A stretch of 32,000 nucleotides of DNA from Nostoc sp. PCC 7120 = FACHB-418 (GTDB lineage Bacteria; Cyanobacteriota; Cyanobacteriia; Cyanobacteriales; Nostocaceae): the NCBI RefSeq assembly GCF_000009705.1, contig NC_003272.1:5610001-5642000 (forward strand), given 5' to 3'. The position numbers were made by a program, and so were the translations under genes. The first letter of the stretch is position 1, and each line of letters begins with the position of its first letter. Shown piece by piece: positions 2,311-2,553 of the stretch. Under the pieces are notes generated by a model. The model saw only the letters and a program-made list of their open reading frames with translations, was not told the DNA's origin and searched no databases.

Positions 2311-2553
2311 ATGGCTAATATCGCAATCGATACACTACATCTTACAGGTTATGATTTGTTGTATGATGTTGACAGCTTTCTTGATAAACTATTTTATCAG
2401 GAAACGTCATCCTTAGGAGGTGGTTATTGGGGTAAATCTTACGGGTATAACTCCTTGTTTGGCGGTGGTTACTCAGGAAATAGTGGCTCTTATAATTCAT
2501 TTTCTGGCGGATTTTCTGGGCATGGTGGCTACTACAATAAATCCTGGTGTTAA
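2311..2553 (+). CDS. 80-aa Gly/Ser/Tyr-rich small peptide with an N-terminal leader ending in LGGG (bacteriocin/microcin-like precursor candidate)
   Basis: AAGGAG lies 7-8 nt upstream of ATG 2311. The protein has an acidic/hydrophobic N-terminal 38 aa (MANIAIDTLHLTGYDLLYDVDSFLDKLFYQETSSLGGG) and a low-complexity core (YWGKSYGYNSLFGGGYSGNSGSYNSFSGGFSGHGGYYNKSWC). No family was recognised. Confidence 0.6.
   Translation: MANIAIDTLHLTGYDLLYDVDSFLDKLFYQETSSLGGGYWGKSYGYNSLFGGGYSGNSGSYNSFSGGFSGHGGYYNKSWC

Follow-up and report, generated by a model that had tools for sequence, protein, structure and literature searches.

asr4707 of Nostoc sp. PCC 7120, a candidate dispersed peptide precursor with the double-glycine leader of Group II clusters

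Next to nothing is known about the products and roles of the hundreds of double-glycine (GG) peptides that cyanobacterial genomes encode. The closest described systems are the Group II clusters of Wang, Fewer and Sivonen (2011), which contain an M16 peptidase, an APH_ChoK_like protein, a rotamase and a long exporter with a CAP_ED domain, and of which the same authors count two in PCC 7120, beside three Group I clusters and one Group VI cluster, all with long exporters. Their Group II precursors in this strain are seven acidic peptides of 73-85 amino acids (aa) encoded in tandem, CDS10 and asl1933-asl1938. In class V lanthipeptides and thioamitides, the pair formed by an APH and a HopA1 protein (LanK/LanY) has been demonstrated to dehydrate Ser/Thr, and cyanobacterial 'type-B' putative precursors beside such pairs, with alike leaders and diverse cores and with no member characterised, are described by Liang et al. 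(2022). Here we describe asr4707, an 80-codon gene at positions 2311-2553 (+) of a 32,000-nt stretch of the Nostoc sp. PCC 7120 genome (NC_003272.1, positions 5,610,001 to 5,642,000; the whole of this stretch is called the window). The gene is missing from the precursor list of Wang et al. because their search covered only the surroundings of clusters; earlier mining examined only the neighbourhoods of enzyme and exporter genes, so that dispersed precursors were missed. We consider it probable, by a modest margin of confidence, that asr4707 encodes a dispersed precursor with a leader of the Group II, LanK/LanY-associated type, which would be exported in trans; with low certainty, we favour an extracellular self-associating peptide over a toxin.

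The open reading frame (ORF) starts with ATG and encodes a product with the same sequence as BAB76406.1 of Nostoc/Anabaena sp. PCC 7120. We assigned it to asr4707 because a single offset of +5,610,049 fits the published coordinates of all4705 (holB) and all4708 (tmk) in BA000019 to the window, allowing for 50 nt of padding in the table, and because an RNA sequencing (RNA-seq) study annotates the genes between these two as alr4706 and asr4707. The locus tag itself was not found in the main texts of the literature searched. The gene occupies a spacer of 34% G+C between holB (552-1514, -) and tmk (2944-3579, -), and consists of the following elements:

2297..2302, + strand: Shine-Dalgarno sequence AAGGAG, 8 nt 5' of the ATG, read directly from the sequence
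2311..2424, + strand: leader coding region, residues 1-38, MANIAIDTLHLTGYDLLYDVDSFLDKLFYQETSSLGGG, with the predicted GG cleavage site G37-G38
2425..2550, + strand: core coding region, residues 39-80, YWGKSYGYNSLFGGGYSGNSGSYNSFSGGFSGHGGYYNKSWC, with the C-terminal K-S-W-C motif
2551..2553, + strand: stop codon TAA, read from the sequence

The 38-residue leader is acidic (pI 4.05, charge about -5) and ends in SSLGGG, and the 42-residue core is made of 12 G, 9 S, 7 Y, 4 N, 3 F and 2 W, among others, with a single C as its last residue. An earlier note on this DNA, made from the letters alone, had described the same two-part product of 80 aa with its sequence quoted exactly, and had correctly observed that a PatS/HetN-type RGSGR motif does not occur in it. 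The mature mass of about 4.3 kDa given there has to be revised, as the unmodified core amounts to 4508.7 Da (pI 8.9).

This ORF is a genuine, conserved and transcribed gene under purifying selection. An ATG-initiated ORF of at least 80 aa arises in 4.4% of shuffles of the region 2041-2943, and the asr4707 frame is unbroken in more than 50 distinct relatives from many genera. Orthologues lie between holB and tmk in Trichormus variabilis and Nostoc parmelioides, and relatives in Anabaena subtropica, Goleter, Fortiea, Dolichospermum and others keep the frame at unrelated positions. Among the orthologues the ratio of non-synonymous to synonymous substitution rates (dN/dS) is 0.3-0.6 overall, and the core is more constrained (0-0.3), with 5 synonymous and 0 non-synonymous changes relative to N. 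parmelioides. The published RNA-seq data of Nostoc 7120 define a transcription unit, TU03185, that comprises alr4706-asr4707 and is antisense to the tmk unit where the two overlap. Nitrogen step-down leaves it uninduced at 9 h (log2 fold change, log2FC, 0.35) and raises it 2.6-fold at 24 h (log2FC 1.39, adjusted P 3.8e-6). The earlier note had named three observations that would speak against its proposal, namely no detectable transcript or peptide, a GG junction not conserved in homologues and no purifying selection on the frame. None of these was made: a transcript is reported, G37 and G38 are invariant in the 10 closest sequences, and the dN/dS values given above indicate constraint.

The same data bear on the possibility that asr4707 is a decaying relic or a non-secreted cytoplasmic protein, that is, a cluster precursor stranded by rearrangement whose leader no longer functions. 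Such a history would fit a leader dN/dS near 1 among close orthologues, a peptide that scores below the thresholds of GG-leader profiles, and a locus with no partner gene nearby. However, more than 50 distinct sequences from many genera retain the frame, the GG and the key leader positions, purifying selection on the core is strong, the branch to which asr4707 belongs has its own conserved C-terminal motif, and the gene is both transcribed and regulated, so we regard this explanation as very unlikely.

In an alignment of the 10 closest sequences, M1, I6, G13, F23, L27, E31, G37 and G38 are invariant. The residue preceding the GG, which is G36 in asr4707, can be G, Q, E, K or V, and cleavage is therefore expected after the last two glycines. 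Counted from G38, the leader has L at -4, T at -7 (M or I in most relatives), E at -8, L at -12, L at -15 and F at -16, and positions -4, -8, -12, -15 and -16 are conserved; across 128 family members the GG is near-invariant, with GAG or GS in its place in a few relatives. The peptide thus shows the pattern of GG leaders, in which positions -4, -7, -12 and -15 are hydrophobic and -8 or -9 is acidic, though with T at -7, and from its sequence we assign the leader to the classical double-glycine type. The peptide matches a hidden Markov model (HMM) of the leader family, built from both of its branches, with a value of 1.3e-23. One family member, P0117, passes the NCBIfam model of GG signals, TIGR01847 (18.9 bits, with a cut-off of 15.7), and the weak, sub-threshold profile matches of the 128 members are almost all to GG-leader bacteriocin, lantibiotic or pheromone families. 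The conservation of the GG and of the positions upstream of it, together with the result for P0117, bears out the proposal in the earlier note of a GG-leader precursor, with a predicted cut after the last GG and hydrophobic residues at -4, -12 and -15.

The family to which this leader belongs is not apparent from the peptide as a whole, since single-sequence searches with asr4707 returned 3 and then 8 relatives, and the family emerged only with a leader-only profile, which retrieved 223 proteins. A metagenome scan added 48 loci to the set, a scan of a genome collection with a narrow N-terminal pattern gave 4 loci, none of them from PCC 7120, and tblastn against plasmids gave no match. Altogether, 168 matches to the leader HMM (duplicates not merged) are found in 69 loci and the window. 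The family has the leader consensus MA.IKISELRPAGSELFQDSESFLNEL..E....GG, in which M1, I6, G13, F23, L27, E31 and the GG are the conserved positions, followed by hypervariable cores nearly without mutual similarity. Its named members are mostly Nostocales, including Scytonema and Mastigocladopsis, and the rest include Moorena and Coleofasciculus. Gene order is essentially shared by Scytonema hofmannii, Mastigocladopsis repens, a Nostoc metagenome-assembled genome and one metagenome contig, and is composed of the following parts:

TetR regulator with a pair of M16 peptidases (Scytonema and Mastigocladopsis loci)
between one and four precursors in tandem
APH-family kinase (PF01636), HopA1-family protein (PF17914) and aldo-keto reductase
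two rotamases
HlyD, and an exporter of 900-1030 aa with cyclic nucleotide (cNMP)-binding, Peptidase_C39 (C39) and ATP-binding cassette (ABC) domains

We searched the cluster proteins against the 69 loci and the window. In 30 of the 34 independent loci with cores that are not Gly-rich (4 from a protein look-up and 26 further independent loci), the peptides have homologues of the kinase, the lyase or both no more than 10 kb away, and many cluster loci on sufficiently long contigs also show the aldo-keto reductase, a rotamase, HlyD, the cNMP-C39-ABC exporter or the M16 pair. By its gene content, the cluster beside this leader family corresponds to Group II of Wang et al., and the 'type-B' precursors of Liang et al. 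are likely to carry the same leader. Most cluster-encoded cores are aliphatic, rich in Ser/Thr and free of Cys, which, with the aldo-keto reductase gene after that of the lyase, may point to dehydration followed by reduction to D-amino acids, carried out by a reductase outside the known LanJ classes.

Several loci of the family show further features of their own. In L019 (13738-14772), L020 (13695-14729), L021 (11402-12412) and L015 (5816-6856), a gene of the aldo-keto reductase family follows the HopA1-type lyase gene with an overlap of a few bases. Six tandem precursors in L048 (8794-10171) combine the family leader with short cores holding 2-5 Cys each, for example LTSPHPCCNLTNDILICDF, 7-8 kb from a kinase/lyase pair, and are the most lanthipeptide-like members seen. 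Some cores in L021 (9305-10171), L041-L043 and L045 alternate Thr with hydrophobic or Trp residues (LFGITITITITITLTITL, ...TVTWTWTWTW); these have faint matches to the 'putative ATP-grasp target RiPP' (a peptide made on ribosomes and modified after translation) model (TIGR04497 / PF27893), and their neighbours are the kinase/lyase set, with no ATP-grasp gene. In three contigs of Joint Genome Institute (JGI) metagenomes (L067, 9673-10445; L068, 320-514; L069, 195-380), peptides whose leader is reduced to its distal half (...VGTDFFTDSESFLNELTDDELEQVKGG) are encoded about 100-130 nt from APH/HopA1 genes, and those of L067 and L068 contain Cys in their cores, so the leader module may extend beyond cyanobacteria. 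Finally, in Goleter apudmare (L005), an array of seven further small genes, whose GG leaders are of other kinds (such as MLQIIDLQINELYTEVSSKESATVIGG... and MAKITISNLRTYSIEPFIHNLTSELSETILGG...), lies at 2756-7029 (-), 3-7 kb from the family member, and a CdiI_ImmP immunity-like gene is found beside this array at 2048-2563 (-).

The new element in this family is a branch of predicted peptides, asr4707 among them, which are solitary, Gly/aromatic-rich and mostly Cys-terminated, and which we have seen only in heterocystous cyanobacteria. We defined this branch, termed GSY, by core composition (at least 20% Gly and at most 8.5% aliphatic residues), which gives 52 distinct cores. Among them are repeats of Gly/Ser/Tyr/Phe, stretches of Gly/Trp that carry poly-Cys tails, and sequences rich in Gly/Tyr/His; Cys is present in 44 of the 52 and is the last residue in 30, and in a further 17 the last residue is W, F or Y. 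The C-terminal N-K-S-W-C of asr4707 recurs as [NH]-x-S-W-C in divergent relatives. All the named organisms are heterocystous, belonging to Nostoc, Anabaena, Trichormus, Dolichospermum, Aphanizomenon, Cuspidothrix, Goleter and Fortiea. The GSY leaders keep the export half (F23 to G38) and the N-terminal skeleton, but the RPAGSELFQDSES motif, which is nearly fixed in cluster-encoded leaders, is degenerate in them.

The two branches also differ in their surroundings. Considering independent loci with flanks of 5 kb or more on each side of the GSY gene, and looking for the kinase and the lyase within 6-10 kb, none of the eight GSY loci has a kinase, a lyase or a C39 exporter nearby, and loci without cluster genes amount to 8/8 for GSY and 4/34 for other cores (Fisher p = 4e-6). 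In Dolichospermum, three GSY genes stand in tandem, also without cluster genes. The whole-genome shotgun (WGS) set JAESGP01 contains both a solitary Gly-rich GSY peptide (L052) and a full cluster (L064), and in JAESGC01 the peptides of the cluster (L063) have paralogues that stand alone (L051, L056). If each prefix represents a single genome, these two sets provide indirect support for processing in trans.

If a Group II cluster can act at a distance, asr4707 could also be a substrate of its kinase and lyase, with Ser residues converted to dehydroalanine by phosphorylation and elimination and then either reduced by the aldo-keto reductase of the cluster or joined to Cys80 in a C-terminal thioether ring, to give a RiPP similar to class V lanthipeptides from a distant precursor gene, in the manner of the prochlorosins. 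Homology of the leader to those of cluster-encoded precursors extends to its N-terminal half (M-A-N-I-x-I-x-x-L...G-x-x-L-F-x-D), the core has 9 Ser and 1 Cys, with Ser78 and Cys80 inside the conserved S-W-C motif, and the APH and HopA1 pair is a proven Ser/Thr dehydratase, beside which cyanobacterial 'type-B' precursors have been recognised. Furthermore, a Gly/Ser-rich core adjoins the kinase in L034, and the solitary paralogues L051 and L056 share a WGS set with the cluster peptides of L063. On the other hand, the RPAGSELFQDSES motif is degenerate in the GSY branch, no enzyme lies within 10 kb in any of the eight GSY loci, 9 of the 52 GSY cores have no Ser or Thr to dehydrate, and modification has been shown for no cyanobacterial member. 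We therefore consider this explanation fairly unlikely. The nine cores without Ser or Thr keep a complete leader, which indicates that the leader is not retained only for dehydration. As some GSY members have no Ser/Thr and none has a neighbouring immunity gene or modifying enzyme, we tentatively suggest that the leader serves mainly cleavage and export.

In the reading that we favour, export in trans of a self-associating peptide, the 38-residue leader would deliver the asr4707 precursor to one of the long C39-ABC exporters encoded elsewhere in the genome, and the C39 domain of this exporter would cut after G37-G38. A cationic peptide of 42 residues (4508.7 Da), rich in Gly, Ser, Tyr and Asn and ending in Cys, would then be released. 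Outside the cell, this low-complexity peptide would self-associate and be cross-linked through its terminal Cys, forming part of the matrix or the envelope, possibly with an antimicrobial, perhaps antifungal, side activity. The earlier note had seen the peptide as an orphan with no processing machinery nearby. Locally this is correct, as there is no C39 exporter or modification enzyme in the window or at the syntenic loci, and the three ABC exporters of the window (9760-11511, 27279-29117 and 29128-30939) indeed have no Peptidase_C39 domain. The note had missed, however, that the leader family usually stands beside a kinase/lyase pair and a long exporter, and that clusters of this type are reported elsewhere in PCC 7120, which makes processing in trans plausible despite the empty neighbourhood. 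A 2025 paper lists Alr1927 among the C39 exporters of PCC 7120, and this protein, from its number, is encoded just before asl1933-asl1938.

Several points weigh against this proposal. For every member of the leader family, cleavage and export are predictions from sequence. That the cluster precursors of PCC 7120 (asl1933-asl1938 and CDS10) share the asr4707 leader is likewise deduced from other genomes. The asr4707 peptide itself has no match to TIGR01847 or PF10439 at E <= 10. In close orthologues the leader evolves faster than the core, with a dN/dS of 0.5-1.2 at variable positions, which could reflect relaxed constraint on the leader. The L034 core beside the kinase, although borderline in composition, departs from the solitary arrangement. 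The structure prediction is uninformative: AlphaFold2 gave a mean pLDDT (predicted local distance difference test) of 46, with a weak, low-confidence helix at residues 14-35 and no secondary structure in the core, where pLDDT is below 50. As for the role in the extracellular matrix, it is suggested by composition and by analogy, and we propose it with low certainty.

The earlier note had instead read asr4707 as a class II microcin-like bacteriocin, unmodified and directed against related cyanobacteria. A GG leader, a size below 10 kDa and a Gly-rich cationic core (pI 8.9) are what such a peptide would have, and the tandem Dolichospermum paralogues, whose cores diverge rapidly, the weak matches of family members to bacteriocin and lantibiotic leaders, and a composition that recalls the Gly/Tyr/His-rich antimicrobial peptides of plants and nematodes point in the same direction. 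Nevertheless, searches of Pfam and NCBIfam with the peptide gave no match to a microcin or bacteriocin family, the sole Pfam hint being a weak similarity to glycine-rich proteins of plants (PF07172, E = 0.071). No conserved small ORF of an immunity-like kind adjoins asr4707 or the genes of its relatives that were examined, whereas an Acinetobacter study found accessory genes and a small membrane ORF at all of the putative microcin loci (11/11). The synteny that places asr4707 between housekeeping genes is conserved, the core is conserved and not diversifying among orthologues, and the literature examined on cyanobacterial GG peptides reports no antibacterial activity. A bacteriocin is thus distinctly unlikely. 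Since there is no adjacent immunity-like ORF, the housekeeping synteny and the core are conserved, and the core, of low complexity and Gly/Ser/aromatic in character, ends in Cys, we conclude, with low certainty, that the mature peptide is not a classical self-toxic bacteriocin.

A different destination is suggested by HetC, which is essential for heterocyst differentiation and has no GG-leader gene nearby; the authors of the HetC study raise the question of a substrate gene elsewhere in the genome. HetC shares the cNMP-C39-ABC architecture of the exporters linked to the leader family, the GSY branch comes from heterocystous genera wherever the organism is named, and the asr4707 transcript is up at 24 h after nitrogen step-down; the peptide could then be a HetC cargo with a function in development or in the heterocyst envelope. 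Yet hetC acts early in differentiation, and the transcript is not induced at 9 h (log2FC 0.35). In addition, there is no NtcA-type (GTA-N8-TAC) or DIF (TCCGGA) motif in the conserved region upstream of asr4707, and a taxonomic correlation is weak evidence. The other long-exporter clusters that Wang et al. report in PCC 7120 are more parsimonious partners, and we judge HetC cargo to be the correct description of asr4707 with very little probability. More broadly, there is a slim chance that the solitary GSY peptides, asr4707 included, are the missing cargo of an orphan long exporter such as HetC, delivered to the periplasm or the envelope for filament development or envelope construction rather than for competition. 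If so, an exporter without a known substrate would be paired with a substrate without a known exporter.

The elements that flank asr4707 in the spacer are:

1695..2000, + strand: alr4706, an ORF of 101 aa with a phage-tail-collar domain (PF07484, E = 2e-25), co-transcribed with asr4707 in PCC 7120
2073..2310, + strand: conserved upstream region, with weak sigma-70-like hexamer pairs at 2195-2222 and 2225-2252
2678..2728, + strand: terminator-like hairpin (AAAACCCAA...CTGGGTTTT) followed by a T-run, facing the 3' end of tmk

The block 2073-2640 matches T. variabilis (L001) at 92%, and 2168-2562 matches N. parmelioides (L018) at 86%. Over the 238 nt upstream of the ATG, identity to T. variabilis is 92%, and since this stretch is kept there while the alr4706 segment is missing, asr4707 probably also has a promoter of its own within 2073-2310, although promoter-like hexamers in this region are not enriched over shuffles. 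The segment 1711-2072, which carries alr4706, is missing at the syntenic loci of both T. variabilis and N. parmelioides, and alr4706 is absent from every other locus examined. By this comparison, the segment is a strain-specific insertion or was deleted in the others, and at 101 aa alr4706 may be a fragment. We rejected it as a functional partner of asr4707, given that it is missing in every relative.

On the 3' side, in the spacer towards tmk, a segment of 145 nt (2641-2785) has no aligned counterpart in T. variabilis and holds the strongest hairpin of the spacer (2678-2720, followed by the T-run). The RNA fold of 2550-2730 has a z-score of -2.85, and the hairpin at 2678-2728 is the probable 3' end of the asr4707 transcript. 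The only small ORF 3' of asr4707 (2624-2692, 22 aa) is not conserved and lies partly in the unaligned segment. An Rfam search of the asr4707 region gave nothing above noise, and on this ground an RNA gene was rejected as an explanation of the region. A hydrophobic ORF in the +2 frame (2420-2560) lies wholly inside the conserved frame and was treated as a by-product of Gly-rich codons. The neighbours of asr4707 are holB, the tail-collar-domain ORF, tmk, a protein of unknown function and an M28 peptidase; the last was considered as a processing enzyme and set aside, because its synteny does not extend beyond the closest relatives and the remaining loci of the branch lack it.

Elsewhere in the window, the ABC exporter gene at 27279-29117 (-) is a continuous frame with a single in-frame stop (...DIGSV*EAQAF...), which could mean a pseudogene, a sequencing error or read-through. 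Its product is 33% identical to that of the upstream neighbour, 29128-30939, and the two look like a heterodimeric pair of half-transporters. The run of genes at 17339-23512 (-) encodes GTP cyclohydrolase I, a CobW-family GTPase, threonyl-tRNA synthetase, a flavin-dependent monooxygenase-like protein and delta-aminolevulinic acid dehydratase, and we take it to resemble the Zur-controlled set of zinc-sparing paralogues of Anabaena. A histidine kinase gene with an ethylene-receptor-type N-terminal domain (ETR1_N, E = 1e-43), followed by a gene for a HupE/UreJ-family membrane protein, is found at 11596-13788 (+).

Taken together, one leader family appears to have two lifestyles, one encoded in clusters with a kinase/lyase pair and the other a solitary branch, encountered only in Nostocales, with Gly/aromatic/Cys-rich cargo. 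The comparison of the two branches helps to separate the parts of the leader that address the exporter from those that address modifying enzymes. With asr4707, a genetically tractable test case for processing in trans becomes available in a model strain, PCC 7120, as well as a candidate for the cargo of long exporters such as HetC and a way to distinguish a toxin from a matrix component or a developmental factor.

The Group II and 'type-B' precursors are the known peptides closest to asr4707, having in common with it a homologous 38-residue leader (MA.I.I..L...G..LF.D..SFL.EL...E....GG), the GG motif, hypervariable cores and a cyanobacterial lineage. In contrast to them, the GSY peptides are never found beside a kinase, lyase, reductase, rotamases, M16 peptidases, HlyD or exporter (8/8 loci), their cores are nearly aliphatic-free, Gly/aromatic-rich and usually end in Cys, whereas cluster cores are aliphatic, Ser/Thr-rich and mostly Cys-free, and the RPAGSELFQDSES part of their leaders has degenerated. 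With respect to class V lanthipeptides, asr4707 has the leader homology and a core with Ser/Thr and Cys, but no co-encoded APH/HopA1 pair. With respect to GG-leader substrates in general, a cognate C39-ABC exporter is not found nearby in the 32-kb window or at the syntenic loci, although the cluster-encoded relatives do have one.

The class II microcins colicin V, MccE492 and MccAB1 are, like asr4707, made from small GG-leader precursors with a Gly-rich core, and their export by a peptidase-containing ABC transporter (PCAT) with a membrane fusion protein would be expected for asr4707 too. The leaders of class II microcins have roughly 15-20 residues, and that of asr4707 has around double this length. 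The likeness to colicin V and MccE492 that the earlier note had proposed turned out to be one of composition, as asr4707 has no sequence or profile similarity to these families, no adjacent immunity, exporter or accessory genes, and a cyanobacterial host. The asr4707 core and its relatives in Dolichospermum and Aphanizomenon (for example GYGYHGGYGHHGGYRRYGHHGGY...) are also similar in composition to eukaryotic Gly/Tyr/His-rich antimicrobial peptides such as shepherins, the nematode NLP/CNC peptides and histatins; this is an analogy and not a homology, and origin and secretion route differ.

For a matrix function there are two precedents. Microcin MccAB1 of Acinetobacter forms amyloid scaffolds and builds biofilm. 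In Synechococcus elongatus PCC 7942, the secreted GG-motif proteins EbfG1-4 are processed by the C39 exporter PteB and have a role in the biofilm matrix, and EbfG1-3 form amyloid. By analogy, these small cyanobacterial GG-motif peptides, which serve as matrix components and not as toxins, may offer a precedent for asr4707, although the EbfG genes adjoin their exporter and asr4707 adjoins none with a C39 domain, the composition differs, and a published BLASTP search found no EbfG homologue in Anabaena.

The dispersed arrangement has its own parallel in the prochlorosins of marine picocyanobacteria. There, dispersed ProcA precursors with a Nif11-type leader, and with cores that are not low-complexity, are served by one ProcM, a class II LanM enzyme. 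Like the asr4707 family, the prochlorosins comprise many precursors with one conserved leader and hypervariable cores, some of them encoded far from the enzymes and the exporter and processed in trans.

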